Shown here: piece by piece, positions 24,481 to 44,266 of the stretch
How the letters are laid out: every line of letters starts with the position of its first letter
How positions within the stretch are numbered: the stretch's first letter is position 1
NCBI GenBank assembly: GCA_002069945.1
Contig: MWCH01000004.1
Span: 4,959 to 68,958, forward strand
Length of the DNA stretch: 64,000 bases
DNA from: Microgenomates group bacterium ADurb.Bin219
GTDB lineage: Bacteria > Patescibacteriota > Microgenomatia > UM-FILTER-40-11
Reading direction: 5' to 3'
Notes under the pieces: model-generated
The model's input: the letters and a program-made list of their open reading frames with translations, nothing else
The model's database searches: none
What the model was told of the DNA's origin: nothing
Made by a program: the position numbers and the translations under genes

Positions 24481-24489
24481 GGAATTAAA

Positions 24490-26205: not shown

Positions 26206-27238
26206 AGACTTTTATTGTTTCCCGAGCTGTTTTCTGCCAGGAAAACTTTTTAACTTGTGTAAAGCCGGCCTTTATAATTTTATCTCTAAATTCTTGGTCT
26301 TCAATTGTTTTCTTTATTCCTTCGGCTATATTCTCAATCGAATCGGGGTTAACCAAAGTTGCCGCTTTACCGGCAACTTCCGGAAACGATGAAGTCTCGG
26401 AAGCAACGACTGGACAACCGCATCCCATCGCTTCTAAAACCTGCATTCCAAAGCCTTCATAAAACGAAGGCTGACAATAACATGCCGCCAAAGAATAAAG
26501 ACCGGCTAATTCTTCTTCTTTAACAAAACCCAATCGGAAAACATCCTTGCTCTCATCAACCAACTTAAGAAAGTCAATCAAGGGTTTATTCTCAATGTTC
26601 CCTCGGTCAAAATTTTCGCTGACTGCCTGTTTGCCGACTACCGCTAAAGAGATCCCGATTTTACGGCAAGCCTTAACCAAACCGGGCAAGTTTTTATTAT
26701 AATTGACATCTCCTACATACAAAACGAATTTTCCCGGCAAAAGATATTTTCTTTTGATCGCCTCCAAGGTTTTAAAATCCGTTATCTTTTTCAATTCGTT
26801 CCCGGCGGCCAAAGGAACGACATCAATTCTATCTTCCGGATAATTCAAAAAATGAACAATATCCTTTTTTGAATTTTGGGAATCGGTAATTACTCTTTTA
26901 ACTCCTTTTAAAGAAAATTTTTGTATTTGATATTTGAGACTGCCCTTCAATCCCGGCGGATAATTCTCGGGAAAAACCAACGGCGTGCAATCATGAATTG
27001 TTACTATTGTCGGCTTAGCTTTTAATAACGGTAGGCTTAAAAAAAAGAAATCAAAGAAAGGATGATGAACCAAATCGCTTTCTGATGGGATATTGTTCCC
27101 TTCAAACTCAACTAGCGAAAAACCGGCAAAACTATTTTTCTTTAACGCTTCCGTCAGCCTCCGTGTATATATCCCGACTCCTCGGAATTGGTGGCCGGTC
27201 TTTAACCCGGAAACGTCAACGGCAACCCTCATTTCCAT
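26174..27238 (-). CDS. GT4 family (GT-B) glycosyltransferase
   Basis: C-terminal EGFGMQVLEAMGCGCPVVASETSSFPEVAG (E-x7-E region) and an N-terminal acceptor domain (VDVSGL...GVGIYTRRL). Confidence 0.7.
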   Translation of the reverse strand: MEMRVAVDVSGLKTGHQFRGVGIYTRRLTEALKKNSFAGFSLVEFEGNNIPSESDLVHHPFFDFFFLSLPLLKAKPTIVTIHDCTPLVFPENYPPGLKGSLKYQIQKFSLKGVKRVITDSQNSKKDIVHFLNYPEDRIDVVPLAAGNELKKITDFKTLEAIKRKYLLPGKFVLYVGDVNYNKNLPGLVKACRKIGISLAVVGKQAVSENFDRGNIENKPLIDFLKLVDESKDVFRLGFVKEEELAGLYSLAACYCQPSFYEGFGMQVLEAMGCGCPVVASETSSFPEVAGKAATLVNPDSIENIAEGIKKTIEDQEFRDKIIKAGFTQVKKFSWQKTARETIKVYEKVLEKHNR

Positions 27239-28041
27239 TCCTCCTCAATATTGTCCGTGCCGTAAATTTTCATTTTGAGATATTTTAAAAACGCCCACTG
27301 GAAATGGAAGCCTGAAAAAAAAGCAAAAACAAATCCCTGCCAGGAATCAACAAACCCTTTATGAAAAATATAAATATTTAAAAAGGTAAAAAGCGGTTTA
27401 ATCAATAAATATTTAAGCCAATTGAGAGGATTAAATAAGTTTAAATTATCTTTAAATAATTTTTCCGCTTCCAAGGAAGAATAACGGTTTTCCCTCAGCC
27501 AATAACGGGAAAATTTTGGGGTAGCCCAGTGCAATAAATCATTCTCAAGCCAACCGATCTTTCCCTCAACTTTCATTTGCTCATGAACGCTTTTCTCCGG
27601 TAATCGGGCCTTGCCCTTTTTGAATAATCTGATTACCGGATCCGGATATTGTCCCCCTTTTGTCAGATAGCGCCCTAAAAAATAATTTTTTCTTTTAAGC
27701 CAATAGGCATTGGGCAAGTGATTGAAATTGCTAACGATTTGCTTAATTTCCCTGGCCAATTCAGGAGAAACGATTTCGTCTGCATCCAACTGAAGAATCC
27801 ATTTACCATGGCAATTATCGATTGCCAAATTTTTATTGGTATGAAACATTGGTTTATTGGAAGTGGCGATAACTATTGCTCCCAGCTTTTCGGCAATATC
27901 TTTAGTTTTGTCTGTTGAACTGCCATCAACAACAACCACTTCGTCCGCCAGCCGGCGGACCGAATCCAAACATCTCTTGATATTTTCTTCCTCGTTAAAG
28001 GTGGCTACGGCTACAGATAAATTTAGTTTGTCTTTAATCAT
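27229..28041 (-). CDS. GT2 family glycosyltransferase (paralog of 55351-56190 and 62395-63276)
   Basis: LSVAVATFNEEENIKRCLDSVRRLADEVVVVDGSSTDKTKDIAEKLGA, DxD (QLDADE). Confidence 0.7.
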   Translation of the reverse strand: MIKDKLNLSVAVATFNEEENIKRCLDSVRRLADEVVVVDGSSTDKTKDIAEKLGAIVIATSNKPMFHTNKNLAIDNCHGKWILQLDADEIVSPELAREIKQIVSNFNHLPNAYWLKRKNYFLGRYLTKGGQYPDPVIRLFKKGKARLPEKSVHEQMKVEGKIGWLENDLLHWATPKFSRYWLRENRYSSLEAEKLFKDNLNLFNPLNWLKYLLIKPLFTFLNIYIFHKGFVDSWQGFVFAFFSGFHFQWAFLKYLKMKIYGTDNIEEEWK

Positions 28042-29678
28042 TGCTCAACAATTCTAAAGGCGTCTCCGAGATTTCCGGGATTAGAAATTCTCGCTATTAT
28101 TCTACCCGACTCCGGAATTTCCTCCGGACTGCCGATGATTAAAACATGGCTTTTCCTCTGTATCTTTTCTAAATCAATCGGCCCAAAAAAATATTTATCA
28201 AAATTGGCAACGGTAGAAAAACCATACCTATCTTTTGGGGTTAATTTCGCTTCTGTCTGAAATTTTTCCGGCGGGTACTTCAAATAAAAAGCAAGTAGAA
28301 TATACGGCTGATCATACTTGTCGGTTATAAAAATTTTATCGTATTTGGATTCGTTTTCTCTAACATAATCGGCTAAATCTTTAAAACCATATTCCCAGGC
28401 AGCCGGATAAATTTTTGGGTAATGAACATAGTATTGGTGCAAATAAAAAGCCATGTTCCATAAATAAAGAATAAAGAATAAAAAACAAAGAATAAAAAGA
28501 ATTTTTAAAGAAAAGGTCTTCTTAATCCAACTGATTAAGTTAACCAATCCGTACGCGACAATAATAATTAACGGGATTACCATATTTAAAGACCTAATGG
28601 CGTGGGGAGATTGGAAAGTCAACGCTGAAGCCAAAGGAGCTATCGCTAACCACCAAAGCAAAAAAAGCCAATTCTTCGGTTTGTTCTTTATTAAAGAATA
28701 TAAACCTAAAAGCAATAAGGGAATCTCCATCAAATACATCTGCCCCATTTCAGGAACTCTATTCCTTTGAATTTCATCTCCGGAAATAAAAAGAAAGTCT
28801 CCGGATAAGTGAGAAAAATAATTATCAAAAAAATTAATTCCGTAATTGATAATTTTGTTGTGAAGAATTTTTGGAATTAAAGAAAAAGGGTCGGAATGTT
28901 GTCCGCGTAACTCATTCACCCGCCAAATTGGGCCGGTATCGGCAAATATTCCCACTCCGGAAAAGCGGGAGGCTCCGGCGGGACCAAAAAAGGAAACGAT
29001 CAAAGGAGCAGCAAGAATTAGTCCAATAATAAAAGAACCGATTAGCCAACTTGAGTTTGCTCTTTTAAAAATTTCTTTCCTGTAATAAAATCCCAAACCA
29101 AAAATTAGCAAAGGAGTAATAATCCGGGCGCTGTGGTAAGTATATAAAGATAAAATAAAAATTAAAAATGAAAAAATAAAATAGATTGGTCTTTTTAGTG
29201 CCCTAAGGAACAGGTAAACAGCAAGGGTGATAAAGAAGGTCGCCGCATTGGTTTCCCAACCGCCTCGGGAAAAATGAAGATGCCAGGGAGAAACGGCAAG
29301 TAAGAGCGAAGAACTTAAAGCTAACAGCCTTGAGCCGAACAACTCAATCACCAATAAATACAAGATTAATACGGTTAATGACCCAAGGATTACCGAAGGC
29401 AATCTGACGGCAAGCTCGCTTAGCCCAAAAATTTTAACAAACGGCAATACCAAATAAAAATATAGTCCCGGTTTGTAATCGTTAAAGGATTGGAAACTAA
29501 TTGGCCAAGGATGGCCAAACTCGTCTTTTCCGGTTTTTAAAAGCGAATAGGCGTTATAGCCGATAGCCGCCTCGTCGGCATTTAACCCGACAGGAAACTC
29601 ACCTATTTTCCATGCTCGCAAAAATAAAGCCAGCAATAATATCAAAAATATCAAATACTTTTTAATCGTTTTTCTCAT
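28038..29678 (-). CDS. GT-C fold glycosyltransferase, ArnT/PMT-like (tandem paralog 1)
   Basis: 546 aa with 11-13 TM helices. First extracytoplasmic loop GLNADEAAIGYNAYSLLKTGKDEFG (DE motif), second motif GLSELAVRLPSVILG, and a conserved soluble C-terminal module (...DKYDQPYILLAFYLKYPPEKFQ...GDAFRIVEQ). Confidence 0.7.
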   Translation of the reverse strand: MRKTIKKYLIFLILLLALFLRAWKIGEFPVGLNADEAAIGYNAYSLLKTGKDEFGHPWPISFQSFNDYKPGLYFYLVLPFVKIFGLSELAVRLPSVILGSLTVLILYLLVIELFGSRLLALSSSLLLAVSPWHLHFSRGGWETNAATFFITLAVYLFLRALKRPIYFIFSFLIFILSLYTYHSARIITPLLIFGLGFYYRKEIFKRANSSWLIGSFIIGLILAAPLIVSFFGPAGASRFSGVGIFADTGPIWRVNELRGQHSDPFSLIPKILHNKIINYGINFFDNYFSHLSGDFLFISGDEIQRNRVPEMGQMYLMEIPLLLLGLYSLIKNKPKNWLFLLWWLAIAPLASALTFQSPHAIRSLNMVIPLIIIVAYGLVNLISWIKKTFSLKILFILCFLFFILYLWNMAFYLHQYYVHYPKIYPAAWEYGFKDLADYVRENESKYDKIFITDKYDQPYILLAFYLKYPPEKFQTEAKLTPKDRYGFSTVANFDKYFFGPIDLEKIQRKSHVLIIGSPEEIPESGRIIARISNPGNLGDAFRIVEQ

Positions 29679-29733
29679 CTTTCGGTTTTTTTACCTTAAA
29701 ACTTCTACCTTTATAAACTTTCAAATTATTGAC

Positions 29734-31389
29734 TCATCTAGTTTCAACAATTCTAAAGGCTAAACCTCCATCGGGAAATTTAACTTCTTTTAATATTTGA
29801 AATTTTTCCTGATCAACAAGATCATGGAGTGGTAATTCGAATTCGTTCCCCACAAATAAACTCTTCGAGATTCCCCGATCGGCGGGCCAATAAATATTTC
29901 TGAACTCAACTTTATCAATCTTCTCTATTTCTCCGACATCGCCGTAAGGATTTTCCTTTAAATAAGCTTGTTTTTGATACATTTCAGGGGGATAGCGATT
30001 GTAAAAAAGATAATATATATATGGTTGGCCATATTTTTGGGTAATGACTACCTTTTGATAATTTTCTTGAACCTTGGCTACATAACCAACCATATCCTTA
30101 TAACCATAAAGCCAATCCTTAGCTGAATTGATCGGGAAATGAATATAATATAAATCTAAGTACATAATTATGTTAAATAAATAACCACTAATTAAAAATA
30201 GATACAGAAGCGTCCTAATTTTTTTAAATTTTATACTTGCTTCTAAAACCACAGTTAGGCCAACCGCCTCAAAATAAACTAAAGGAACCGCCATCGGTAA
30301 AGATCTCACCCCTTGAATCGAATCACGGGTAATTGCCGCCGGAACAGGCGCCATTAATAACCAAAAGAGAAATAAATAATCATGTTTTTTTGGTTTTCTG
30401 CCTAAAGTTATAATTAAACCAAGAATTAAAAAGGGTAAACTAGCCAAATACATCATTCCGAAGTAGGTCGTGTTGTGTCGCCGACTACTCCAATCTCCTT
30501 CAAAAAATAAAAATTTGGCAGAAAGATGATTAAAGTATCTCCCTAAAATTCCCCGCAAAAAAGAAAGGCCTTCGCTGTGAAAAAGCGGGAAGAAAAGACT
30601 TTCAGAAACGCCCCCTTCTTTTTTGATTTGCTGTATAACCTCTATTGGTCGAGAATATGAAAAAACACTCATCACTTTTAACCTTCCCGCTGTTTCTCCG
30701 GCCACTAAGCCCCAACTCACAACAAGGAAAGAAGCAACTAACGGCAAGGCAAGCAAAAATATCTTTCTAGTCGATAATTTTGGCATTTCTCTTCGCCAAA
30801 TAGCCACCAAACCAAAAACAACCAACCAGGTAAAAACTTTGGCACCTTGATAAGTAATAAAGGTCAACCCGAATAAGACGGAAGAAAAAAAGAGCAAAAG
30901 ATTATTCTTATTTTTTATCCCGTTAATAAATAGGTAAAAGGCCAAAAAAATCTCAAAAACTGTGACATTAGCTTCCCAAGCCCCTCTTGAAAAATGGATA
31001 AGCCAAGGGTTAATCGCCAGTAAAATGGAAAAAATTATCCCAAATCTTTCTGAAGAAGTTAATCTTTTGGCTAAACAATAACCGACAATGGCTAACAGGC
31101 TTCCCAATAAAGCGCTCGGGAATCTCACTGCCAACTCGTTAAGACCTATCAGCCAAACAAAAGGAACCGCTAAATAAACATATAGCCCCGGCTTGTAATC
31201 ACCAAATGATTTAAAAATTAAGGGTAACACATTACCATATTCGTCTTTTCCAGTCTTTAAAATTGAATAAGCATTATAACCCAAAGCAGCTTCATCCCAC
31301 GTCAAGCTAACCGGATAAGAACCAAGCTTATAAGTTCTAAGAAATAGGGCGAGCAAAAATATTAATATCACCAAGAACTTTCTTTTCAT
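29734..31389 (-). CDS. GT-C fold glycosyltransferase, ArnT/PMT-like (tandem paralog 2)
   Basis: SLTWDEAALGYNAYSILKTGKDEYG, GLNELAVRFPSALLG; C-terminal QKYGQPYIYYLFYNRYPPEMYQ...FPDGGLAFRIVE. Confidence 0.7.
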   Translation of the reverse strand: MKRKFLVILIFLLALFLRTYKLGSYPVSLTWDEAALGYNAYSILKTGKDEYGNVLPLIFKSFGDYKPGLYVYLAVPFVWLIGLNELAVRFPSALLGSLLAIVGYCLAKRLTSSERFGIIFSILLAINPWLIHFSRGAWEANVTVFEIFLAFYLFINGIKNKNNLLLFFSSVLFGLTFITYQGAKVFTWLVVFGLVAIWRREMPKLSTRKIFLLALPLVASFLVVSWGLVAGETAGRLKVMSVFSYSRPIEVIQQIKKEGGVSESLFFPLFHSEGLSFLRGILGRYFNHLSAKFLFFEGDWSSRRHNTTYFGMMYLASLPFLILGLIITLGRKPKKHDYLFLFWLLMAPVPAAITRDSIQGVRSLPMAVPLVYFEAVGLTVVLEASIKFKKIRTLLYLFLISGYLFNIIMYLDLYYIHFPINSAKDWLYGYKDMVGYVAKVQENYQKVVITQKYGQPYIYYLFYNRYPPEMYQKQAYLKENPYGDVGEIEKIDKVEFRNIYWPADRGISKSLFVGNEFELPLHDLVDQEKFQILKEVKFPDGGLAFRIVETR

Positions 31390-31414
31390 TTTTATCCTTT
31401 ATGAACTTTTAAAT

Positions 31415-33082
31415 TTACAGGCTTTCCAAAATCTCAAATGCCGCTTTCCCGTCCAAAAAGTTGATTGTTTTAATTTTATTCCATCCCTCTGGATAATTAT
31501 TTGGGCTGGTTACCAGTAAGCACTTCTTGTCCAGACCACCGCACTTTGCACTTTGCATTTTTAACTTTAAACTCTCGCCAATCTCCCAATCGTTTACAAA
31601 GACAATCTTATCTAAAGCATTAACCCAATACCAATTGGCATGATAATCCCCTTCTTTTTGACTTTGAAAGTCGGCCGGTTCCCAAGGAAAATAAAAAGCG
31701 ATGAATTCATGCGGCTCACCGTATTTTTTTGTAAAAAATATTTTTTCGTATTTTTCGTAATTTTCTTTGACAAAAGAAACGGCGTCTTTATATCCATACT
31801 GCCAAGCCCAGGAATAAGTTTTGGGATAAACCGCAAAATAGTCTCGCCACCAACGAGAAAAACTGACCGTAACCGCTAAGATAAAAACTCCGGTAACTAA
31901 TTTGCCGCGGAAAAGTGACCTGCCGGCTAAAAAATCATCAATTTCTTTTAGTCCCAATGTAATCAATATCATCGGCAAGGGCAATATTAAAATGGTTCTT
32001 AAAACATGAGGAGAATCCCGAGTAATTGCCGCCGGTAAAAATGCCAATAACAACCAAGGTAAAATAATCCTTGAATATTCTTTTCTTTTCAAGACAAATC
32101 CGACCCCCAATAACAAAAACGGGGCCGATACCAAGTACAAAAGCTCGTGATCCGGCAAAGAAAACTGGTAATGACTGCCACCGCGGAAGAATAGGTAACG
32201 GGGTGAAAAATTAGCCAGATAATTTCGAACGACAAAGTAACCCAAAAAAGTAACTTTATTAAAAAGGATTTTCGGTAAAAGTACCGGCAATTTTGAATTG
32301 ACCCTTTTTTCTACAATCCGATTAATTGCACCCTGATCAAGCAAAGTCACCCAATCAAACCTCGCTTTGGCAGATTGGTCAAACCACTGAAAAATAATCG
32401 GCAAAAAAAAGATCAATAAAACTAAACCGGGAACAATCAGTTGACTCGCTTTTTTTCTTTTTAATCCAAAAATTAAAATCAAAACCGCAAAAATCGGAAC
32501 CAAAATTCGCGCCGAATTATAGCTGTGAAGAGAAAGCCCCCAAAATAAAGCCGTCAAAACTAAATTTTTGGTCTTCGGCTTATCTTGCTGCCAGCAAAAA
32601 AGGAAATACAGACCGAAGGCGAAGAAAAAGGCGCCTAAATTGGCCTCCACCGCTATTCTGGAAAGAAACAACGACCAAGGGCTAACCGCCGTCAGCAAAG
32701 CAGCCAAAATTCCCCACCCACGGCTCTTGGCAATCTTCGCCGTAATCAGGTAAGCTAAAAAAACCAATCCCAATCCCGAAAACACCGAAACAAGCCTGAC
32801 CGAATAGGTGTTCAAGCCAAAAAGGCCAACAAAAGGAACCGTCAGATAAATATACAAAGGTAACTTAAAATCTCCATAAGCCCTAAAAATCAACGGAAAC
32901 CTTATTCCCCATTCGTCCCTCCCGGTCTTTAAAATTGAATAAGCGTTGTAACCATGGGAAACTTCATCCCAGTTTGGCGATGGAGGATTTGTATTTAATC
33001 TAAAAAATCTCAAAAAACAAGCCAAAAGTAATATTAAAATTAATGAAAAAAAATTTAATCGTAAGGTTTTAGTGTTTTTCAT
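31415..33082 (-). CDS. GT-C fold glycosyltransferase, ArnT/PMT-like (tandem paralog 3)
   Basis: SPNWDEVSHGYNAYSILKTGRDEWG; C-terminal KKYGEPHEFIAFYFPWEPADFQ...FLDGKAAFEILE. Confidence 0.7.
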   Translation of the reverse strand: MKNTKTLRLNFFSLILILLLACFLRFFRLNTNPPSPNWDEVSHGYNAYSILKTGRDEWGIRFPLIFRAYGDFKLPLYIYLTVPFVGLFGLNTYSVRLVSVFSGLGLVFLAYLITAKIAKSRGWGILAALLTAVSPWSLFLSRIAVEANLGAFFFAFGLYFLFCWQQDKPKTKNLVLTALFWGLSLHSYNSARILVPIFAVLILIFGLKRKKASQLIVPGLVLLIFFLPIIFQWFDQSAKARFDWVTLLDQGAINRIVEKRVNSKLPVLLPKILFNKVTFLGYFVVRNYLANFSPRYLFFRGGSHYQFSLPDHELLYLVSAPFLLLGVGFVLKRKEYSRIILPWLLLAFLPAAITRDSPHVLRTILILPLPMILITLGLKEIDDFLAGRSLFRGKLVTGVFILAVTVSFSRWWRDYFAVYPKTYSWAWQYGYKDAVSFVKENYEKYEKIFFTKKYGEPHEFIAFYFPWEPADFQSQKEGDYHANWYWVNALDKIVFVNDWEIGESLKLKMQSAKCGGLDKKCLLVTSPNNYPEGWNKIKTINFLDGKAAFEILESL

Positions 33083-34776
33083 TCCTCTTTAAATTTTACG
33101 ATTTTAAAAGCAATTTTCTGTTGGGGTCCTGGATAGCGAATTATAGCAAGAATTTCTCCGTCTAGAACGCCGGCAAAATCTTCCTCTTTTCCGACAAAAA
33201 GTGCTCCTTTAATTTTTTTATCTTCCGGAAAATGAAAATTCCTAAATTCAAATTGGCCCAAACGATATTCTGGCAACTGATCAACAAACAATAAACCTTT
33301 TTTTTCATACTCCAGCCAATTATTAGCTTCTTTTTGAACAAATAGAGGATCTGTTTTAAGATAAAAGGAAACTGCTATTTGCGGTTCAGAAAAATTTTTA
33401 CTGATAATTATTTTACCCGGGTAATTAACAAGGAATTTGCTTGCTTGACTCCATCCATAAGCCATATTAATAGCATTAACTACCGGCGCATGGAACAAAT
33501 AATCTTCAAGAAAAATGCCCAAAAAGAAAAAAACCGTAAGTAAGTAAAACACCAGGAAATATCTACTAAACTGACCAAGTTTATTCTTAGTTATTTCGAT
33601 TAACTCAATTCCACCGTAAGCGGAAATAATTTGCCAAAAAGGCAACATTGTCGCCGCTCGATTGCCGGCGGCTTCCCCTTTGGCTAAAGCAGCCGCCAAA
33701 GGAGAAAATAATAACAAAACTATAATTAAAGTTAATGATTTTTCTCTCTTCTTAAAAATCTGGGTAATAGCCAGAAGGACTAGGGGGAGCTCAAAAAAAT
33801 AAAGAACGCCCCTGCCGGGGATCATTCCGTAAGTTGCCTCGCTGACTCCTTTAGTAAAAAGAAACTCCAAAGAAAAGTAACCAAGATAATTTTTAGCAAA
33901 ACGATTAACTATAAATGAAAGCTTATTGTTAAAAATTCTTTCTCTTTCGTAGGGTAACCCCAGAGTGACCGCTTCATATTGGCGCTCCGACAAACTTTGC
34001 CAATTTTTAGTTTGATTTAAAATGGAAGTATCTGCCACCCTTGTTTTTCCTCCCCACAAGAGAGTCAAAAAAGCCAAGAATAAAAAAACAGCAAAAACCG
34101 ATAAGAACGAAAAATATCTCTTCGCTTTTAAAAAATCTTTTCTGAAGAAAAAAACCAAAATAAAAACCACTAAAGGAATGTAAAAACGCGGAGAATAATA
34201 AGTAAATAAATCTAACCCAAAAACAATTGCCGCCCAAAAAAAATACGGCCAATTTTTAAGACCTTTTAGAAATAACCATATCCCCAAAGAAAGGAAAAAA
34301 GTGTTTAAAGAAGCTTCAAATGCCCCGCGAGAAAGACTAATATGCCAAGGGCTAATCGCCAAAAAAAAGGCTGTGATATAAGCAAAATTATTATTTTCAA
34401 CCTTCTCTTTTCCATAAAACTCTAACTCTTTAACTAATAAATAAACAGCCAATACGGCTAAACTGCCAAAAATAGCGCTGGGCAACCTCACCGCCAGTTC
34501 ATTCAAACCAAAAATCGCAATAAAAGGAATCACTAAATAGGTATAAAGTGGTGAGCGAAAATCGCCAAAAGCCCGAGGAGTTATGGGCAATTTCTCTCCC
34601 CATTCATCTCTGCTAGTTTTCAATATTGAATAAGCAGTATAACCTTGAGAAATTTCATCCAAACTAAAACCGGCCGGAAACGAAGTTATCCGATAAACTC
34701 TGAGAAAAAATGAAAAAAGAAAAATAAGAGTCAAAATGACTCCGGTTGAGAAACGATTATTTCGTTGCCACCACAT
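33079..34776 (-). CDS. GT-C fold glycosyltransferase, ArnT/PMT-like (tandem paralog 4)
   Basis: GFSLDEISQGYTAYSILKTSRDEWG, GLNELAVRLPSAIFG; C-terminal NFSEPQIAVSFYLKTDPLFVQ...IAFKIVK. Confidence 0.7.
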   Translation of the reverse strand: MWWQRNNRFSTGVILTLIFLFSFFLRVYRITSFPAGFSLDEISQGYTAYSILKTSRDEWGEKLPITPRAFGDFRSPLYTYLVIPFIAIFGLNELAVRLPSAIFGSLAVLAVYLLVKELEFYGKEKVENNNFAYITAFFLAISPWHISLSRGAFEASLNTFFLSLGIWLFLKGLKNWPYFFWAAIVFGLDLFTYYSPRFYIPLVVFILVFFFRKDFLKAKRYFSFLSVFAVFLFLAFLTLLWGGKTRVADTSILNQTKNWQSLSERQYEAVTLGLPYERERIFNNKLSFIVNRFAKNYLGYFSLEFLFTKGVSEATYGMIPGRGVLYFFELPLVLLAITQIFKKREKSLTLIIVLLLFSPLAAALAKGEAAGNRAATMLPFWQIISAYGGIELIEITKNKLGQFSRYFLVFYLLTVFFFLGIFLEDYLFHAPVVNAINMAYGWSQASKFLVNYPGKIIISKNFSEPQIAVSFYLKTDPLFVQKEANNWLEYEKKGLLFVDQLPEYRLGQFEFRNFHFPEDKKIKGALFVGKEEDFAGVLDGEILAIIRYPGPQQKIAFKIVKFKEE

Positions 34777-36406
34777 AAAAAGCCTCCTTCCCGTCTGGAA
34801 AATAAATTGTTGTTAAAAGTTCTGATTGTTTTGGATCAATGTCTTTTTTTGATATTCGTTCTGGAGGACCGGCAAATAGTGTTTTAGGTAGACTTCTATC
34901 CCTTGGCCAGTATATATCCCTGAATTGGTAATTATCATAACCCCTACCCTCCCCTAATGACCATTCATCCTTTTTAACTAAAAAAGCCTGGGGCTGATAC
35001 TTTGCCGGATCATACTTTTCATAAAATAAGAAAAAAAGATAGGGACCCTGGTATGTTGTATCAATCACTACCTGATTATATTTATCTTTTAACGGAGAAA
35101 CAAATTCAACCAATTGTTTATAACCATATTGCCATCCCGATGGGCCCTGGTAAGTTCTTAGAGGGGTGAGAAGATAATAACTTAACAGGTAATACCCAAA
35201 GGACCAAAAGAAAATGGTTAAAAATACGGCAATCGGGATAATTCTAAATTTAGACTTGCATCGACTATACCATTTGTTAATTCCTAAAATTCCTAAGGCG
35301 AGAATTACCATCAGGGGATAAACCATTTCAAAAGCTCTTCTGGCATGAACCGGATCGCGAGTAATCACTGCCGGCAAGGGGGCCACCGCTAACCAGGAAA
35401 AGAGTAAGGCGGTTTCTTTCTTTTTTGATTTGATTAGCCAAATATTTGCCATCCCAACAACCAAAAGAATAACATCGGACCAAAACATCATCCCCATTCC
35501 GTAAATTTTCTGTCTGTCATCCGGCGGGCCTTTTACAAATAAAAACGAAGGTGAAAATTGATTAAAATAATGATCAATTACCATAAGGCCGTATTCGACC
35601 AGTTGATTATGATAAAGATTAAAGATGCCGGAAAAGATATCTTCTCTTTTCATCTTCTGTAAATATTCATCCGGTCTTTGATAGCCAAAGATGGTTGTCA
35701 TTAGAATCTTCCCTTTCTGGCCCGAAGAAAGCATCGAAAAAACAAGTGGTAAACAGAGTAAAAAACCCAGTAAAAACGCTTTAATGGTTGGCTTTAATCT
35801 TTTTTTAATTTCTTTTTGATAAATAGCGGCGATTGCCAAAAGCAAAACCGGGACAAATAGCCTTTCCGAAAAGTAACTGTACAATGCCAGGCTGAAAGAA
35901 AATGACGATAGATAGATCTGCCACCTGCCTCCTTTTAACCATTTGTTAAAAGACCATAAACCAAGAATTACAAAAAATGATCCGAGAGCGACATCCCCTT
36001 GAGCACGAGTAAATTGTAAATGCCAGGGAGAAATCGCCAAAAGCATTCCGGACAGAATACTTAAAGAAATATTCCCGAACAAATCATTAACTAGAAGAGA
36101 AAAAAGAACTACTGACATTGCTCCGAAAAGTGAGGGTAACAATCTGATGCTGAATTCATTCAGTCCAAAAATCTTAATTACCGGAACCAGGAAATAAACG
36201 AATAGGGGGCATTTATAATCTCCCACCGACTTAAATTCCAAAGGAAGCTTCGTACCATACTCATCCTTTCCCGTTTGAATAACGGAATAGGCATTATAAC
36301 CAAAAGCAGTTTCGTCCCAATTTAAGGATAAAGGGACTTGAGTAATTTTGTAAAATCTAAAAAAGAGGGCAACAACAAAAATTAATAAAAATATTATTTT
36401 TTTCAT
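34757..36406 (-). CDS. GT-C fold glycosyltransferase, ArnT/PMT-like (tandem paralog 5)
   Basis: SLNWDETAFGYNAYSVIQTGKDEYG, GLNEFSIRLLPSLFG; C-terminal TYQGPYLFFLFYEKYDPAKYQ...FPDGKEAFYVV. Confidence 0.7.
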   Translation of the reverse strand: MKKIIFLLIFVVALFFRFYKITQVPLSLNWDETAFGYNAYSVIQTGKDEYGTKLPLEFKSVGDYKCPLFVYFLVPVIKIFGLNEFSIRLLPSLFGAMSVVLFSLLVNDLFGNISLSILSGMLLAISPWHLQFTRAQGDVALGSFFVILGLWSFNKWLKGGRWQIYLSSFSFSLALYSYFSERLFVPVLLLAIAAIYQKEIKKRLKPTIKAFLLGFLLCLPLVFSMLSSGQKGKILMTTIFGYQRPDEYLQKMKREDIFSGIFNLYHNQLVEYGLMVIDHYFNQFSPSFLFVKGPPDDRQKIYGMGMMFWSDVILLVVGMANIWLIKSKKKETALLFSWLAVAPLPAVITRDPVHARRAFEMVYPLMVILALGILGINKWYSRCKSKFRIIPIAVFLTIFFWSFGYYLLSYYLLTPLRTYQGPSGWQYGYKQLVEFVSPLKDKYNQVVIDTTYQGPYLFFLFYEKYDPAKYQPQAFLVKKDEWSLGEGRGYDNYQFRDIYWPRDRSLPKTLFAGPPERISKKDIDPKQSELLTTIYFPDGKEAFYVVATK

Positions 36407-36409
36407 CCC

Positions 36410-37057
36410 CTAGTATCTACCAACTAAATATGGGTAGTGCAATAGCAAATAATGGAGAAAACGGGAATATTCAAAAACTAGCAAAATCAAGACTAACGCT
36501 TTCGTCCAATAATATTTTTTTTTATTGAAAAACTCAGTCACGCCCAAACCAACGATATAATACATCCCGATGATAAAGGGTAAGCGGGAAAATGTCTCAT
36601 ATTCTTCCCGAATTAAAATTCCTAATATTGGAAGCAATAAAACGAAAACCAAGATCTTGGAGCGATTTTTATAGCATAGATAAAAACCATAACCCAAAAA
36701 AGGCAACCATATCCAATAAATCGGTCCTGAATTCCTAGTTGATTTCTCGATGCTTAAATCTCCTTGGGTGAACAAAAAATGTGAGTCAAAAGATTCTAAA
36801 TATCGTTGTCCAGCATCTTTCATAAAATAGGTAAACTTATTGATAAATATTTTTCCATAAATAGCTATTCCTGCCTCTTTGATCTGACCCCTAGTGAAAT
36901 TTATCTCTGAAATAAAAACCGGAGAGTTAAACTTATAAAAATTTATTTCTGCTTTACTTAATCTTGAAAAATTAAAAAGTAAAGTCCATGGGGTCGGCGA
37001 CATCAAAAACAGAAGAATAAAAATAATAATAGATAAATTCATCCGTCTAGCTTTCAC
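36410..37057 (-). pseudogene. truncated GT-C paralog fragment (central TM region only; lacks the N-terminal DE-loop catalytic region and the C-terminal soluble module)
   Basis: The 215-aa ORF aligns with residues ~270-430 of the neighbouring paralogs: RYLESFDSHFLFTQGD vs NYFSHLSGDFLFISGD; IYWIWLPFLGYGFYLCYKNRSK vs MYLMEIPLLLLGLYSLIKNKPKN; FLHYLLLHYPYL vs YLHQYYVHYPKIYP. It has intact start and stop codons, so it could be expressed as a mini-protein. Confidence 0.45.
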
Positions 37058-38745
37058 CGTAAACCTCCAAGTAAATAAATATAGGGGTCCTTGTTACCTG
37101 GGGCTTTAACTAATCCCAATACTTTGATTCCTCTAATGGGTTCTTTTTCAATATTCCAATCTCCCGGAATCTCGTCTTTTTGAAAAGCTAAATAACAATT
37201 CCCCGGTTCAGCCAAGATTCTTTTTACCCCTTCAAGCCTATTCTCTTCTATAAGATGGCCAAAAAAGACATTCCCTAAACTAAAATTGCTAAAACCATTA
37301 GTAGTTTGGTTTTCTTTATCATCCTTAAAATTATTCAAAAACCAATTCGGGTCGGTTCCTGTCCAAAACAAATATCTTATTAGAATTGGCTCGTGAGAAT
37401 TATTCAAAAAATAATTTCGACATATGGATTCGTTTTCATTGACTAAATTAATAGCTTCCTTATATCCAAAGTGCCAATAGCGAAACTGCTCTTGCGGATA
37501 GTGTTTAGTCAGCTCATGAAAATAACCGACCAGAGAATAAGTTAGAATCATAATGACTATAACCAAAAATATTCCTTTGATTTTCGCTGAAATCTTCTCA
37601 ATTCCTATCGCGATTAAAACAACCAAAGGTGGAACCATTAAAAATAACCTGGTTGCTTGTTCACCTCCTCCAACTGTCAAAGCAGAGGCAATAGGAGCAA
37701 TTAGTAACCAATTCAACCATATATTTGGTTTCTTCGACTCCTTTTCCAAGGAAACCAAAATCCCTGACAGTAAAAAAAATAATAAAATGATATAAATTTC
37801 TCCAAACCCTGGAACGGTATGCCTTGGATTGGGATCTCCGTTAAAAAATAAAAATTGAGGAGAGAAAGCAGTCAAATAATTTTTTAAGACAACTTTTGAC
37901 CAGACAAAAAGTTTGTTATGAAAGAACCTTTCGGTTAAATTTTGAGGGTCAGCGCTTCTTTTAAGGATTATTTGCTCAATTAATTTTTGATCAGAAAAAA
38001 TACTGATAAGTTTAAATCGAGAAACAGCTGGGCCTCGAAAAATTGAAAACGAAAAGGGAATTAAAATTAATATAAAAATTGCCAATGCGGGGACCAGCCG
38101 AACAAGTTGCGTCTTTAACTCAAATCTAAAAACAAAAAGTAAAATAATAATCCAGATTGAAGTAAAAACATTGGCCGTATTATAAGTATAAAAACTTAAG
38201 GCAAAACAAATGGCCGCACCCGAAAACCATATTGTTTTTTTCATCAATCCCTTAATAAAAGCGTATGTTCCAGCTAATATTAAAAAAAGCAGTAAGGTTA
38301 CTTCAAACCCGGCTCTGGAATAATGCAAATGCCAGGGAATTATTGTCATAATTAGGGCTGCCCACATAGCTACTTTCTTATCTTTTTCAATTAATCTTAC
38401 CAGGAGATATAAAAAAACAATATCCAATATTCCCCAAAAAGCGCTGGTTAGCCTAATCCCCCATTCATTCAAACCAAAAATAGCCACGAAAGGAATAGCG
38501 CTGTATATAAAAAAAGGGGCCCGTGATTCGGAAAAAGATTCAAGATAGACCGGCAAAAAATTGCCCCGGTAATCCTTTCTTGTTTTGAGCAAGGAATAAG
38601 CCTGATAACCAACGTCTAGTTCGTCTCCAAAAAGCTCAAGCTGATTAAGCCGATAGATCCGGAGACAGATGGCCAAAACTAAAACTACCAAAAAAAATAA
38701 GGTTTCTGGGGAAAAAACCTTCCTTAGGCTGAATTTATTGCTCAT
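37054..38745 (-). CDS. GT-C fold glycosyltransferase, ArnT/PMT-like (tandem paralog 6)
   Basis: ELFGDELDVGYQAYSLLKTRKDYRG, GLNEWGIRLTSAFWG; 563 aa polytopic. Confidence 0.65.
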   Translation of the reverse strand: MSNKFSLRKVFSPETLFFLVVLVLAICLRIYRLNQLELFGDELDVGYQAYSLLKTRKDYRGNFLPVYLESFSESRAPFFIYSAIPFVAIFGLNEWGIRLTSAFWGILDIVFLYLLVRLIEKDKKVAMWAALIMTIIPWHLHYSRAGFEVTLLLFLILAGTYAFIKGLMKKTIWFSGAAICFALSFYTYNTANVFTSIWIIILLFVFRFELKTQLVRLVPALAIFILILIPFSFSIFRGPAVSRFKLISIFSDQKLIEQIILKRSADPQNLTERFFHNKLFVWSKVVLKNYLTAFSPQFLFFNGDPNPRHTVPGFGEIYIILLFFLLSGILVSLEKESKKPNIWLNWLLIAPIASALTVGGGEQATRLFLMVPPLVVLIAIGIEKISAKIKGIFLVIVIMILTYSLVGYFHELTKHYPQEQFRYWHFGYKEAINLVNENESICRNYFLNNSHEPILIRYLFWTGTDPNWFLNNFKDDKENQTTNGFSNFSLGNVFFGHLIEENRLEGVKRILAEPGNCYLAFQKDEIPGDWNIEKEPIRGIKVLGLVKAPGNKDPYIYLLGGLR

Positions 38746-38753
38746 CTTTATAA

Positions 38754-40058
38754 TTATACCTTTTGCGTCAGTTTTTGGCTTGAGTCGTTTCTCAAGAAAT
38801 TCAAAAAAAATATTAAAAATAATAAAAGTAACAATGCCGAAAATATTCTTGTGAAAATAAGATCATTAGACTCAATAACCGACCTTAGCAAGGGCCAATC
38901 GGGATAATACCAAAGATGATATAAATTAAGCCAATGTAAAAGACTTACCAAATTATAAAATAAGAAAGGAAGTCCGGAAAGAGCAACTAAAACCGCCATA
39001 TACGGAAAAGCAGGGTATAAATAGCGCTCATGCATATTGGTCATGAATAAGAATGAGGCAAAAGAAATAAGAACAAAACTTGCCATAATACTATTAATCG
39101 AAAATTTTGTTTTAATTAACTTGATTAAAATTGTTAGATAGAAAAAAGCAAAAAAAAGATACCCCCAATTTCGATAGCTTAAACCAATAAACCATCCCTC
39201 GTCTGTCCGAGAGAAATCAATTCCAAAAATTAATCCCCAAAAATTAAAAGCATTAGCAGTTAACATGTTTCCTTGTCCTCCTAAAATTCTAGTCCTGTAC
39301 AGATCAATCAACCATTTAATTGGACTTTTATAGCTAAACGGTAAGCTTAAGATAACAAAAAGTAAAAAAACAGAAATAAGGCTTAGGATAGCTTTTGGTT
39401 GAGTTCTAAATTTCTTCCAAAGAACAACTAACATCAAAGGAATAAAGATTAGTAAAGAAACCTTAAAATAAAAAGAAAATAATATCCAAAAAACTCCCCA
39501 AAAAACATTTTTTTTAATCAATAATAAATAAACCCCTAATAAAAAAAGAAAGTTGATTAGGCTATCGGTTTGCCCCCAAATGCTGGAATTATAAATTACA
39601 ACCGGATTAAAAAGAAATAGGCTGGCAGCTAAAAGCGGCTTTCCCCATATTTTTTTCTTTTTAAACTTTAAGTTACCAATGAAAAGATAAATTAAATATC
39701 CAATTCCCAGATCTGTTAAAATTGACGGAAGCTTAACCAAAGCCGGAGGCAAATTCTTTTGTACAAAAGGGATTATGTTTGAGGGAAAAAACTGAACCGC
39801 CAAATTAATCTTCCAAAAAGTATCCTGCAACCAGAAGTTTATTTTACTCATAATTGCCCAAAGGTACATTGTTCCCGGTGGTTGATTTGGCCAAGATACG
39901 CCCCAAAAAGTAGCACCGTAAAACCTTTTTGGCCCGTATTCCCAAAATTTTTTTCCCCAATCAAGATGATTGCCTAAGTCTGGATGATAAGCTCCAAAAG
40001 AAAAATAAATTCTTATAATAAATGACAATATTAAGATCAATAATATTTTTTTATTCAT
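38754..40058 (-). CDS. GT-C fold membrane glycosyltransferase, DUF2029/GT87-like subfamily (copy A)
   Basis: 434 aa polytopic; HPDLGNHLDW N-terminal loop and the LFLFNPVVIYNSSIWGQTDSLINFLFLLGVY block (NP...GQ.D signature), shared with 53056-54384, 44267-45469 and the pseudogene at 47198-48263. Confidence 0.5.
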   Translation of the reverse strand: MNKKILLILILSFIIRIYFSFGAYHPDLGNHLDWGKKFWEYGPKRFYGATFWGVSWPNQPPGTMYLWAIMSKINFWLQDTFWKINLAVQFFPSNIIPFVQKNLPPALVKLPSILTDLGIGYLIYLFIGNLKFKKKKIWGKPLLAASLFLFNPVVIYNSSIWGQTDSLINFLFLLGVYLLLIKKNVFWGVFWILFSFYFKVSLLIFIPLMLVVLWKKFRTQPKAILSLISVFLLFVILSLPFSYKSPIKWLIDLYRTRILGGQGNMLTANAFNFWGLIFGIDFSRTDEGWFIGLSYRNWGYLFFAFFYLTILIKLIKTKFSINSIMASFVLISFASFLFMTNMHERYLYPAFPYMAVLVALSGLPFLFYNLVSLLHWLNLYHLWYYPDWPLLRSVIESNDLIFTRIFSALLLLLFLIFFLNFLRNDSSQKLTQKV

Positions 40059-41545
40059 CTGAAAATTTTTAAAAGATTTATTTTCTCCGGCAGTGGACAG
40101 GAGGTATTATTGCAAAGAATATTAAAACGATTTACGACTACCCAGATATTAAAAATAAAGGAAAATAATAGACAAACAACAATCATCGCTTTAGTCAATT
40201 TAATTAATCGTTCATCTTTAAAAATCATCAGCAAGATTGAAGGCAGAAGAAAGATAAATAAAACCGGCCGGAAAACTTTTGACTGAACTAAATAATTTAG
40301 TTTCCAAAAAGGGTTCTCTAAAAGATCAATATTAGCAAGGCTTAAAGGGACAAAGATAGCTATTTGAAAAAATGAAGGATTGTTAATAATTTCCTTTATC
40401 AAAAGGGCAAGAGAAATTGCCATAAAAGGATAAATCGGATAGCGATACCAAGTCAATTGATCATGCTTTCCTCCCGAAATTACTGCTATTAGTAAAGTAA
40501 AAATAAAAGAAAAAACAACTATTTCCTCCCCTTCGGATCTATTTTTTTTAAAAGCCAAGCTCCATAATGATAAAAACCCAAGAACAATCATTCCGTCTAA
40601 AAATATCTCGACGCTGAACCCGGGATTTGTCAGTATATAGGCCAGAGAACTCCAGCCAGCCGGTCTTGAAGACTGATATAAAAATACTTTTAAAAATAAA
40701 GACCAGTCCCATAAATGTCCATAGGCAAAGAAAGACGCCAAAAATATTAAACTACCACAAATTAGACTGATAATCCCCTCTTGCCATCTTTTCCGCCAAA
40801 TCAGCAAAAAGAAAAGAAAGAAAACCAATAAATATCCGGTAGGCTTCGCTAATCCGGCAATAGAAGCTAAAAAAATTGATAGAATTAAATACCTTATTTT
40901 CCACCGTTCAAAATATTTAAGATATAGCCATAAGATAAGAAGAGAAAGCATGGCAATCAAATTTTCCGGAACCGCCAGGCGGGAACCGAAAACTACCGTC
41001 GGTATTGTTGCGTAAATTAAGAGTGATATAACTCCCAATCCATACCCAAAAAGTTTTTTAGCCACCAGGAAAGTGAGAATCATTGTCACTAAGGAAAAAA
41101 ACAATGAAGGAAGTCTAATTACGAGAGGAGAAATTACCGTAAAGTTCGGCTGTTTGTAAAGTTTGGCTATCCCTCCGACAATCAAACTGAATAATGGCGG
41201 CTCATCTAGCCAAGGCTTGATTAACCTGACACCAATACCGCCGCCGCTTGGTCCCGGATTGGGGGCTACTCCACGCCAATAAACATTATTTTCGCCGTAG
41301 ACCGGAATATCGTTCCAGGAAATCGGTACTCCTTCCTCAATCAAAGAAAGACCCGACCAAACAAAAAGATATTCCTCTGCGTGGCCGGTGAAAGGGTAAT
41401 ACTGATATTTCCACAATCTCAGAAAAAATCCGATCGAAAGAACAATAACAAAAACGCCTGTCTTTGCCCATCGATTTAATAGCAAACTACGCCAAGCACA
41501 AACAAAAGACAACTTTTTTTTAAAAAAAATATATTTGTTTTTCAT
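40055..41545 (-). CDS. GT-C fold glycosyltransferase, ArnT/GT83-like
   Basis: 496 aa polytopic; LIKPWLDEPPLFSLIVGGIAKL (DEPP loop) and SPLVIRLPSLFFSLVT (RLPS motif). Confidence 0.6.
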   Translation of the reverse strand: MKNKYIFFKKKLSFVCAWRSLLLNRWAKTGVFVIVLSIGFFLRLWKYQYYPFTGHAEEYLFVWSGLSLIEEGVPISWNDIPVYGENNVYWRGVAPNPGPSGGGIGVRLIKPWLDEPPLFSLIVGGIAKLYKQPNFTVISPLVIRLPSLFFSLVTMILTFLVAKKLFGYGLGVISLLIYATIPTVVFGSRLAVPENLIAMLSLLILWLYLKYFERWKIRYLILSIFLASIAGLAKPTGYLLVFFLFFLLIWRKRWQEGIISLICGSLIFLASFFAYGHLWDWSLFLKVFLYQSSRPAGWSSLAYILTNPGFSVEIFLDGMIVLGFLSLWSLAFKKNRSEGEEIVVFSFIFTLLIAVISGGKHDQLTWYRYPIYPFMAISLALLIKEIINNPSFFQIAIFVPLSLANIDLLENPFWKLNYLVQSKVFRPVLFIFLLPSILLMIFKDERLIKLTKAMIVVCLLFSFIFNIWVVVNRFNILCNNTSCPLPEKINLLKIFR

Positions 41546-41567
41546 TAACGGTACTTGTTTTGATTAA

Positions 41568-43328
41568 TTAGAGTTCCTCATTACTTAAACTTCTCAAAAG
41601 ATAAAAAACAGGTTCGTGTGAATTAAGATAAACCTTATCAATAACCTTTAACCCAAAAGGTTCACTCTTTTCCAAATCACCTCCGAAGTCGTTCCTTCCT
41701 GCAAGAACAAGAATCTTCTCGCTATTCCCCTTTGCTCTCGCCCCTAAAAGAATCGATTTTAAGTAAGAGTCGGTTAGACCGGTCCCGATTTGTCCAAAAT
41801 AAAATTTATTTAACCTTTTCCCGTCAAACCATTCATTACTGATATCCTGAAGTTCTCTGGGATTAAACTTTTCCGGATTGTATTTCGTCCAGAATAAAAA
41901 GAAAATTAATGGCGGTTCGTAAGAGTTGCTAATGATCACCTTATCGTAACCGGATTCATTCTTGGCCACCAAATTAATTGCCTCCTTAAAACCAACTTGC
42001 CAAAATTTTTCTGCATCAATTGGAAAATGGTAAAAATAAATATGTAGGTAATAAACAAAATTCAGACAAACAAGAGTTAAAACAAAACCGGCCGAAATTA
42101 CTTTTAATTTTATGCTTTTGAACCAATCCATCACTTCAAAAAAACCCAGACTGATGAAAAAAGTTAAGGGAATTATGCATAAAAAAAGACGGGTCGCGTG
42201 AGTTCCGCCGTCAAAAGTAATCGAGGAAGGCAAGGGGGCAATGATAAAGTAGGTCAGCAATAAAAGCGCCTCCTTAGGTTGAATTATTTTCTTTTCCTTA
42301 TTTTTGATGATTAGGTAAGATTTAACAACGCCCAAAATCAGCAATGGAGCCGTAACTACTAAGAGATTGCCCATTCTCCCGACACCTTGTCTTAAATTCG
42401 GATCGCCTGAAATAAAAAGAAAGTTCGAAGAGTATCCGGAGAAATAATTAGCAATAATCTCCCAAAACCAAAAGAGAGGTTTGTTATGAAAAAGGTATGA
42501 GATAGCTGCCGGACTCATCCCGACTTTCTGAACCCGATCATGAGTACTGTCAATTAACCTTTGCCTGTCTATCTCATATTTTAAATTAGAATCATAAAAA
42601 ATATTGATGTAGGAAAAACGAAACATACTTCTCCCGGCTAAAGAATCTCTGATAAAAGGAAAAACCATTAACAAAACAAAAACTCCGCTTAAGGCAAATT
42701 TTCTCCAACCAAAATTTAGTATCTCTTTTCGGTATATTAAAAAGGAAAAAAAACCAAGAAGGGGAACAAACATTCTGGCCGTAGCGTATGCATAAAACGT
42801 TAAAGAAAAACATAATAAAGACAATATATAATCTAGATATGACTTTTTTCTTGTAGAAAGCAAAAATAGCCAGAGACCCAAAGTTAGGAGGAAGAAAAAA
42901 AGTGAAACTTCAAAACCTGCCCGACTATAAAAAAAATGCCAGGGTAAGATAGTTAAAAAGAGAGTTGCAATAATTGAAAAGTAGTCATTTTTGCTGATTT
43001 CTTTTGCCAAAAGAAAAAAAGAGAATAACCCCAATATTCCAAAAATTACCGCCGGCAATCTTACCCCCCATTCATTCATTCCAAATAACTTAACTGTGAA
43101 AGCCGCTGAATAAATATATAATGAAGCCCTAAAATCGGCAAACGAATGAAAGGAAACCGGAAATTTACCGCCGAAATAATCTCTCCCTGTCTTTAGAAAT
43201 GAATACGCCTGATAACCAAGATCGGCTTCGTCAAAAAAAAGTGAAGGTGGAATCCTGTCAACCTTGTAAGCCCTTAAAAGAAACCCCAAAATAAATACTA
43301 AACAAAAAATAATTTTTTTCATCTTCAT
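41568..43328 (-). CDS. GT-C fold glycosyltransferase, ArnT/PMT-like (tandem-family paralog 7)
   Basis: PSLFFDEADLGYQAYSFLKTGRDYFG, GMNEWGVRLPAVIFG; C-terminal NSYEPPLIFFLFWTKYNPEKFNP. Confidence 0.7.
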   Translation of the reverse strand: MKMKKIIFCLVFILGFLLRAYKVDRIPPSLFFDEADLGYQAYSFLKTGRDYFGGKFPVSFHSFADFRASLYIYSAAFTVKLFGMNEWGVRLPAVIFGILGLFSFFLLAKEISKNDYFSIIATLFLTILPWHFFYSRAGFEVSLFFFLLTLGLWLFLLSTRKKSYLDYILSLLCFSLTFYAYATARMFVPLLGFFSFLIYRKEILNFGWRKFALSGVFVLLMVFPFIRDSLAGRSMFRFSYINIFYDSNLKYEIDRQRLIDSTHDRVQKVGMSPAAISYLFHNKPLFWFWEIIANYFSGYSSNFLFISGDPNLRQGVGRMGNLLVVTAPLLILGVVKSYLIIKNKEKKIIQPKEALLLLTYFIIAPLPSSITFDGGTHATRLFLCIIPLTFFISLGFFEVMDWFKSIKLKVISAGFVLTLVCLNFVYYLHIYFYHFPIDAEKFWQVGFKEAINLVAKNESGYDKVIISNSYEPPLIFFLFWTKYNPEKFNPRELQDISNEWFDGKRLNKFYFGQIGTGLTDSYLKSILLGARAKGNSEKILVLAGRNDFGGDLEKSEPFGLKVIDKVYLNSHEPVFYLLRSLSNEEL

Positions 43329-44155: not shown

Positions 44156-44230
44156 TGTTGCTTCTCAGAAGTTAATTATTAAATATCTTTTTTTATCGAT
44201 GCGCCTTTTTAAAATAAATTCCTGGAAAAA

Positions 44231-44245
44231 ATCTAGAAATTCTAG
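44231..44245. promoter_or_regulatory. palindrome TCTAGAA-A-TTCTAGC (6-bp arms) in the 111-bp intergenic gap upstream of GT2 gene 43325-44155
   Basis: CTAGAAATTCTAG is the reverse complement of itself around a central A/T; operator-like. Coordinates are approximate. Confidence 0.2.
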
Positions 44246-44266
44246 CTAAATTTGTTTCCGAAATAA

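Follow-up and report, generated by a model that had tools for sequence, protein, structure and literature searches.

The 64-kb stretch of DNA analysed here (the window) comes from Microgenomates group bacterium ADurb.Bin219, has a G+C content of ~35% and carries nearly all of its genes on the minus strand. It contains an array of paralogous GT-C glycosyltransferases, whose open reading frames (ORFs) were labelled A, B, C, D, E, f, G, J and M. Seven of these are full-length members of one family and all lie on the minus strand, namely A (28038-29678, 546 residues), B (29734-31389, 551 residues, OQA93449.1), C (31415-33082, 555 residues), D (33079-34776, 565 residues), E (34757-36406, 549 residues), G (37054-38745, 563 residues) and J (41568-43328, 586 residues). 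An eighth, short paralog, f (36410-37057, minus strand, 215 residues), lies between E and G. The coordinates and strand agree with those given in an earlier model-made reading of the DNA letters (the sequence-only reading), and the N-terminal motifs described there are present in the alignment of the copies (A1).

In all-against-all BLASTP comparisons, the seven full-length proteins can be aligned pairwise across approximately their whole length at 26-40% identity, with E values from 1e-42 to 1e-113. A compositional artefact as the source of the similarity is thereby ruled out, and the paralogy of the seven copies is real and far beyond chance. The Pfam domain PMT_2 scores above its gathering threshold in all seven, spanning only residues ~10-230, while PMT scores above its cut-off in A, B, C, E and G, falls just under it in D (21.2 vs 22.7) and has no match in J. 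Public databases label proteins of this family as 'glycosyltransferase family 39 protein' or 'Dolichyl-phosphate-mannose-protein mannosyltransferase'.

The core family was defined by a full-length match to the family hidden Markov model (HMM), covering profile positions ~5-553 with the C-terminal domain included and scoring above 200; the seven copies score 509-796 and all belong to it. The sequence-only reading had counted nine copies, of which these seven stand as core members and two turn out to be distant relatives only. The first of the two, M (45466-47010, minus strand, 514 residues), is a PMT_2 protein that scores 112 over profile positions 7-453 only and matches the seven with BLASTP E values of 1e-11 to 1e-17. 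It keeps the Asp-Glu pair of the first loop, lacks the C-terminal motifs of the family and has its own orthologs in other genomes (59% identity in locus L082). The second, at 1-643 (minus strand), is the N-terminal part of a PMT_2-type GT-C that runs off the window; it is more remote than M (score 49, E ~1e-8) and lies outside the core family. Two further PMT_2 genes, at 40055-41545 (minus strand, 496 residues, of another GT-C subfamily) and 49213-50655, which the sequence-only reading had passed over, are as distant from the core family as these two. Because four independent assemblies from other samples agree with the array over 5-16 kb, at a nucleotide identity of 99.86-100%, the assembly is sound and the array is no assembly artefact.

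Orthogroups and gene order

A scan of one genome per GTDB species returned at least 576 stretches with relatives of the array, and the best 80 loci were examined. These come from Woese-, Shapiro-, Ames-, Davies- and Blackburnbacteria and from unclassified Patescibacteria. Every examined locus carries an array, with 3-7 full-length members (mode 5) within 10 kb either side of the B ortholog. When the 352 full-length proteins of the 80 genomes and the window were clustered, each paralog of the window fell into a separate group, and no locus had more than one member of any orthogroup. Orthogroups A, B, C, D and J hold 74, 81, 72, 47 and 25 of these proteins, each in the same number of loci, and G and E hold 13 and 3; the rare orthogroup E is seen only alongside the short gene f. 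Mean identity is 0.43-0.51 within orthogroups (0.54 in the three-member E) and 0.27-0.35 between them. A, B and E cluster together, as do the sister orthogroups G and J.

Gene order was read by assigning each ORF to its best-matching gene of the window. The recurring order is J or G, followed by a GT87-like gene, D, C, B, A, a GT2 gene, a GT4 gene, a PIG-V-like GT-C gene and a second GT2 gene; in Shapirobacteria-like genomes it extends further to a GT2 (21785), a radical-SAM gene (20214) and another GT2 (18768). The genes of the window described next are all on the minus strand. The GT87/PIG-U-like GT-C (38754-40058, 434 residues, without a Pfam match) is a conserved member of the block, located mostly directly upstream of D, and is a paralog of genes at 47405-48103 and 53056-54384. 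The first GT2 (27229-28041, 270 residues) adjoins A downstream in nearly all genomes examined, and the GT4 (26174-27238, 354 residues) and the PIG-V/PMT_2-like GT-C (25045-26205, 386 residues) are likewise conserved in the block. The best-conserved gene of the block is an ArnC/PpgS-like GT2 (22822-23643, 273 residues), with 42-69% identity to its best matches in most loci. Its best matches to characterised types, all below cut-off, are ArnC, PgfS, PpgS, AglJ and Dol-P-hexose transferase, which makes it a candidate donor synthase.

Among 46 loci with full flanks, C is present in 46, A in 45 and D in 32; B is present in all 46 by construction, as it was the query. In a comparison of copy number between related genomes, as proposed in the sequence-only reading, A, B, C and mostly D are 1:1 across candidate phyla; further upstream the array differs between lineages, with E and f rare, G or J in some loci only, and extra or inverted copies in some genomes. 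The L082 locus (GCA_040961665.1) holds nine full-length members together with f and M in 20 kb. At 1908-5263 of this locus, upstream of J, are two extra full-length members that fall outside all seven orthogroups of the window and are 28-33% identical to A and B.

The paralogs are 26-40% identical to each other, compared with 40-64% to their orthologs in other genomes. Because the orthogroups are 1:1 across candidate phyla and in conserved order, the duplications are older than the radiation of these phyla, and all copies have since been retained as distinct, non-redundant genes. The paralogs are very probably ancient, subfunctionalised GT-C enzymes. Calculation of dN/dS along their length is not meaningful, since both paralogs and orthologs are saturated at synonymous sites, and the close relatives available differ by only 0-9 mismatches over 5-16 kb, a number too small for this purpose.

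Many of the array-bearing records of metagenome-assembled genomes (L003, L005-L007, L009, L010 and others) are labelled 'uncultured Gammaproteobacteria' or 'Clostridia bacterium'. Their gene content and their identity to the window suggest that such labels are wrong.

Fold, catalytic residues and conservation

Matches of the family to the PDB at sequence level are marginal (ArnT, 5EZM, E 0.0035; STT3, E 0.0055), and therefore a comparison of folds was needed. AlphaFold2, given 61 family sequences, produced a model of B with a pLDDT of 91.8 and a pTM of 0.90, and a Foldseek search with this model against the PDB gave a probability of 1.0 for STT3A/B, PglB, AglB, ArnT (TM 0.54), ALG12 and Pmt4. 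The model thus places B in the GT-C fold, in its ArnT/PMT/STT3-like branch. The ArnT/PMT-like GT-C identity proposed from the letters alone is borne out by both the Pfam PMT_2 matches and this comparison, and the refuting outcome named there, a non-GT-C fold, did not arise. None of the GT-Cs here scores above the cut-off of a curated NCBIfam model, the best being a sub-threshold match to TIGR03663 (Agl23).

Conservation of residues was counted over the 352 full-length members in the numbering of B. D32, E33 and R362 are invariant (352/352 each), followed by D49 (351), R89 (348), Y180 (347), R135 (345), R236 (337) and K/R66 (318). The pair D32/E33 lies in an acidic motif in the first extracytoplasmic loop after transmembrane helix (TM) 1 and is equivalent to D55/E56 of ArnT and D77/E78 of Pmt1, a loop-1 pair that forms the active site across the clan (PMC7801869). 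In ArnT, K85 touches the phosphate of the lipid carrier (PMC7801869); the lysine of the GDYKP motif (K/R66) pairs with the 'KPP' of ArnT in a weak HMMER alignment (E 0.0035), from which the numbering offset to K85 is inferred. The conserved R236 and R362 are further candidates for binding the carrier phosphate. Because the catalytic set is kept in each of them, all full-length orthogroups are probably active enzymes.

A topology was derived from the helices of the B model together with the B sequence. TM1 (3-19) is followed by a long outer loop with D32/E33, two helices and a hairpin. TM2-7 lie within residues 85-230, a helical outer loop of ~80 residues spans 231-314, TM8-11 lie within 315-426, and a soluble domain occupies 430-551. 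Short loops rich in K/R at ~107-114, 157-163, 198-208, 330-337 and 386-392 are predicted to be cytoplasmic and alternate with the outer loops. The model would thus have 11 TM helices with the N-terminus inside and both the catalytic loop and the C-terminal domain outside, in line with the positive-inside rule and with what is usual for enzymes of this class.

The C-terminal domain of the model is a soluble alpha/beta domain, as found on the outer side of other GT-C enzymes. A profile of this domain, searched against 1.84 billion representatives, matched 2461 proteins; in nearly all of the best 150 of these the match lies at the extreme C-terminus, and full-length matches are 514-634 residues long. 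Among the matches listed, none places the module in another domain architecture, and the shorter ones, which stop exactly at the C-terminus, resemble gene calls on short contigs that have lost their N-terminal part. The domain, for which the sequence-only reading saw no obvious counterpart in characterised ArnT/PMT enzymes, is on these matches a family-specific version of the known GT-C outer domain and not a new add-on.

Mean pairwise identity among the seven paralogs, computed in segments of 30 residues, is highest at residues 16-105 (0.44-0.55) and lowest at residues 181-270 (0.19-0.25), with secondary peaks of 0.33-0.36 around residues 271-300 and 331-375. In the C-terminal module it is ~0.30 (436-480) and ~0.20 (481-540). 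The description of these proteins as conserved at both ends and divergent in the middle accordingly holds for the N-terminal part; the C-terminal module has a few common motifs, yet on average it is not above the membrane core in conservation.

The excess of conservation within orthogroups over that in the whole family is largest at residues 226-325 (the long outer loop), 351-375 and 451-500 (the C-terminal domain), and smallest in the TM helices. Such orthogroup-specific constraint in the loop after TM7, the next helices and the C-terminal domain would fit divergent acceptor recognition around a common donor and catalytic site. It also agrees with the earlier proposal of duplication followed by divergence outside the catalytic loop. 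A strict search for specificity sites, with thresholds of 85% or more conservation within every one of groups A-D and three or more different residues, returned a single site, position 304.

The short gene f, annotated as a 210-residue 'hypothetical protein' (OQA93453.1), had been taken for a fragment in the sequence-only reading. Its family-HMM score is 53 over profile positions ~200-424 only, and it lacks the Asp-Glu loop and the C-terminal domain. On the topology map of B it covers nothing but the C-terminal membrane module, from TM7 through the long outer loop to TM8-11. Homologs of f are 208-215 residues long and 43-65% identical to it in other genomes (48-65% in other metagenomes), and wherever counterparts were found in the loci (L003, L018 and L082) they are flanked by the orthologs of G and E. 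The alignment of f (A3) retains YLESFDxHFLFxEGD, YETFSRLPF and HYP, which match the FLFxxGD motif of the family, the surroundings of invariant R362 and the beginning of the C-terminal domain, respectively. As an unselected relic would not hold an intact ORF of constant length where selected proteins are only 50-69% identical, f is a conserved short gene and not debris. It may be a stand-alone copy of the acceptor-side membrane ('variable') module, and it is probably a partner of its neighbour E. A conserved stand-alone protein of this kind appears to be undescribed.

Proposed function

Overall, these observations are best read as an uncharacterised GT-C subfamily, with seven full-length members and one truncated member in the window, that carries out outer-face steps on a shared glycoconjugate; we give this reading a probability of roughly 60%. 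The conserved ArnC/PpgS-like GT2 would make a polyprenyl-phosphate-sugar donor on the cytoplasmic side, and each paralog would take sugar from such a donor at the outer face of the membrane and add it to a different acceptor position of one extracytoplasmic glycoconjugate. This glycoconjugate would be primed by the co-conserved cytoplasmic GT4 and GT2 enzymes, and the GT87-like, PIG-V-like and MptA-like GT-Cs next to the array would elaborate it further. For the use of polyprenyl-phosphate-sugar donors the pointers are indirect, namely the co-conserved ArnC/PpgS-like GT2 and a predicted topology in line with the positive-inside rule. That the paralogs act serially on one glycan, an option also offered in the sequence-only reading, is the best reading of their function, and one that we hold at even odds.

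Several points weigh against this interpretation. The window showed no recognisable gene for a priming phosphoglycosyltransferase or for a flippase of the Wzx/ABC or GtrA-like kind. The ArnC-like GT2 falls far under its NCBIfam cut-off (60 vs 529 bits), and the residue correspondences with ArnT depend on the weak sequence match given above. In addition, the case for serial action is drawn from co-conservation only, and separate acceptor classes for each enzyme would be expected to give the same pattern.

Among known systems, the closest in overall logic are the assembly of mycobacterial lipomannan, lipoarabinomannan and arabinogalactan and the luminal ALG steps in the endoplasmic reticulum. 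In Corynebacterineae, the embC-embA-embB operon and the Aft/Mpt/PimE set likewise comprise tandem GT-C paralogs with distinct acceptor specificities, and many GT-Cs act in series outside the membrane with polyprenyl-phosphate sugars after cytoplasmic GT4 priming. The locus examined here has a similar content, with an MptA-like gene, GT87-like genes and a Ppm1/ArnC-like GT2.

The likeness to other GT-C families is more limited. With ArnT (GT83, the undecaprenyl-phosphate-L-Ara4N:lipid A transferase; PDB 5EZM/5F15), sequence similarity is marginal. ArnT has 13 TM helices compared with the 11 counted in this family. No ArnT NCBIfam match was found and no ArnA/B/D-type genes were recognised in the window; bacteria of the candidate phyla radiation (CPR) are not known to make lipid A. 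Compared with the oligosaccharyltransferases STT3/PglB/AglB (GT66), the C-terminal domain of the family is much smaller, a regular expression for the WWDYG motif of oligosaccharyltransferases (W[WY]D[YWF]G) found it in none of the paralogs, and there is no sign of a lipid-pyrophosphate oligosaccharide donor.

With the protein O-mannosyltransferases (GT39; yeast Pmt1/2/4 and actinobacterial Pmt), the family shares the PMT/PMT_2 N-terminal domain. It is conceivable that the paralogs are PMT-like protein O-glycosyltransferases, each serving different secreted or surface proteins or sequence contexts instead of successive steps on a glycan, after the model of the eukaryotic PMT1/2/4 subfamilies, TMTC1-4 and TMEM260. 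We regard this as unlikely, albeit the strongest of the alternatives. The C-terminal half differs from that of GT39 and is a soluble alpha/beta domain, and neither a MIR domain nor a PMT_4TMC match was found by Pfam at E <= 0.01. Structural similarity is as high to ALG12, ArnT and AftA, GT-Cs whose acceptors are not proteins. Further, the GT4, GT2, GT87-like, PIG-V-like and MptA-like neighbours are typical of glycolipid or polysaccharide assembly, and the synteny block includes no conserved candidate acceptor protein.

The copies could also be obligate hetero-oligomers, comparable to Pmt1-Pmt2 or EmbA-EmbB, in which some of them, and f, are mainly structural or regulatory subunits. Strict co-inheritance of the same set in a fixed order with overlapping stop and start codons would fit such an arrangement, as would the conservation of f beside E despite its lack of a catalytic loop; however, the complete set of catalytic and putative phosphate-binding residues is present in every full-length orthogroup, with D32 and E33 in all 352 proteins. 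This makes the explanation improbable for the array and possible mainly for f. A recent, fast-evolving cassette that diversifies a surface glycan between strains under phage or host pressure, as suggested in the sequence-only reading, would account for the lineage differences in the upstream array but is essentially excluded by the 1:1 orthogroups in conserved order across candidate phyla, by paralogs that are further apart than orthologs and by the identical array in four independent samples; the paralogs are not a variation cassette of this type.

The reading of serial outer-face steps on a shared glycoconjugate can be taken further, to a class-wide, lineage-defining surface glycopolymer of Microgenomates that would be built almost wholly at the outer face by a conserved series of 8 to more than 15 GT-Cs, as a bacterial counterpart of the luminal ALG/GPI steps or of mycobacterial lipoarabinomannan and arabinogalactan assembly. 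In this series f would be the first GT-C 'variable module' to occur as a protein of its own and would serve E as a split or accessory subunit. We consider this extension doubtful. Microgenomates genomes are ~1 Mb in size, of which such a series would take up to ~6-9%. If it holds true, the class-wide surface glycan would be a leading candidate for the means by which these episymbionts, which are uncultured, attach to their hosts.

CPR bacteria (Patescibacteria) have minimal genomes and a cell-surface chemistry that is essentially unknown, and here a window of 64 kb is given over to glycosylation. The conservation of the core GT-C string gene for gene across the sampled Microgenomates is a sign of an envelope glycoconjugate that is complex, ancient and probably essential. 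This conservation, and the number of GT-Cs that such small genomes hold, appear to be undescribed: full-text literature searches on Microgenomates or CPR glycosyltransferases found no paper on the array, and one CPR review makes no mention of glycosylation. The fold and mechanism are well known, and tandem specialised GT-C paralogs are precedented in embCAB. The value of the array is thus as a lead into CPR envelope biology and not as a new principle. As handles for experiment it offers the seven orthogroups, whose catalytic residues are intact, as well as a candidate lipid-sugar synthase and a truncated paralog that is conserved.

Other genes of the window

Next to the array on the minus strand are a GT2 (43325-44155, 276 residues), which is a conserved upstream neighbour of J or G in many genomes, and a polytopic membrane protein (44267-45469, 400 residues) with a precomputed MptA_B_family match and a weak MptA match, which is probably a GT-C. 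Other GT-C-type genes include a YfhO gene (50652-53084), the PMT_2 gene at 49213-50655 and the GT87/PIG-U-like genes at 47405 and 53056. Altogether, no fewer than 15 GT-C-type genes can be recognised in the window, besides 10 GT2 and 4 GT4 genes, methyltransferases, two B12-radical-SAM enzymes and a pyruvyl transferase. The intergenic gaps along the array are -10, -4, 55, 25, -4, -20, 3, -4, 8, -4, 22, -4, 111 and -4 bp, and this tight, co-directional packing is consistent with co-transcription. A scan of 27600-47500 for consensus promoters and terminators gave numbers at the expectation from shuffled sequence (52 vs 55.6 and 29 vs 22.7, respectively) and is uninformative on operon boundaries. 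A 152-residue ORF at 19741-20199 was considered as a GtrA-like flippase and rejected; it has no Pfam match and no obvious resemblance.

The entire window is a glycosylation island on a contig of 69,982 bp. Genomes of relatives are ~0.6-0.9 Mb in complete Microgenomates records, and the island is an unusually large share of a reduced genome.

The region of the GT87-like gene at 47405-48103 (47198-48263, minus strand) is apparently broken by frameshifts. Pieces at 48036-48263 (N-terminal), 47405-48103 (middle) and 47198-47308 ('PKMHERYF') resemble successive parts of the intact gene at 38754-40058, and the 395-bp 'gap' at 47010-47405 belongs to the broken gene, which is either a pseudogene or the result of a sequencing error.

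Four large polytopic membrane proteins with big soluble parts, of 1150, 757, 621 and 530 residues, are encoded at 3403-6855, 11392-13665 and 57178-59043 (minus strand) and 60769-62361 (plus strand), respectively. When the large membrane proteins of the window that lack annotation were searched with Pfam at a relaxed threshold (E <= 1), no usable match was obtained, and none of the four has a match at that threshold. By BLAST, the 1150-residue protein is weakly similar to the YfhO gene. Orthologs of the 621-residue protein (30-42% identity) are located directly downstream of the conserved GT2 in other genomes, so the gene has been relocated in the window.

At 8634-11262 and 15667-21737 (minus strand), a polysaccharide pyruvyl transferase adjoins an Fe-S protein similar to the F420-hydrogenase beta subunit, and two B12-binding radical-SAM enzymes are interleaved with GT2s and S-adenosylmethionine-dependent methyltransferases. 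Such a gene content is suggestive of a product with sugars that are pyruvylated and C- or O-methylated. The pair formed by the radical-SAM gene (20214) and the GT2 (18768) is syntenic in Shapirobacteria-like genomes. Similarly, a gene of the purine/uridine nucleoside phosphorylase family and a phosphoribosyltransferase gene (23610-25023, minus strand) lie between the PIG-V-like GT-C and the ArnC-like GT2, and the nucleoside phosphorylase is found at the same position in locus L004 (71% identity).

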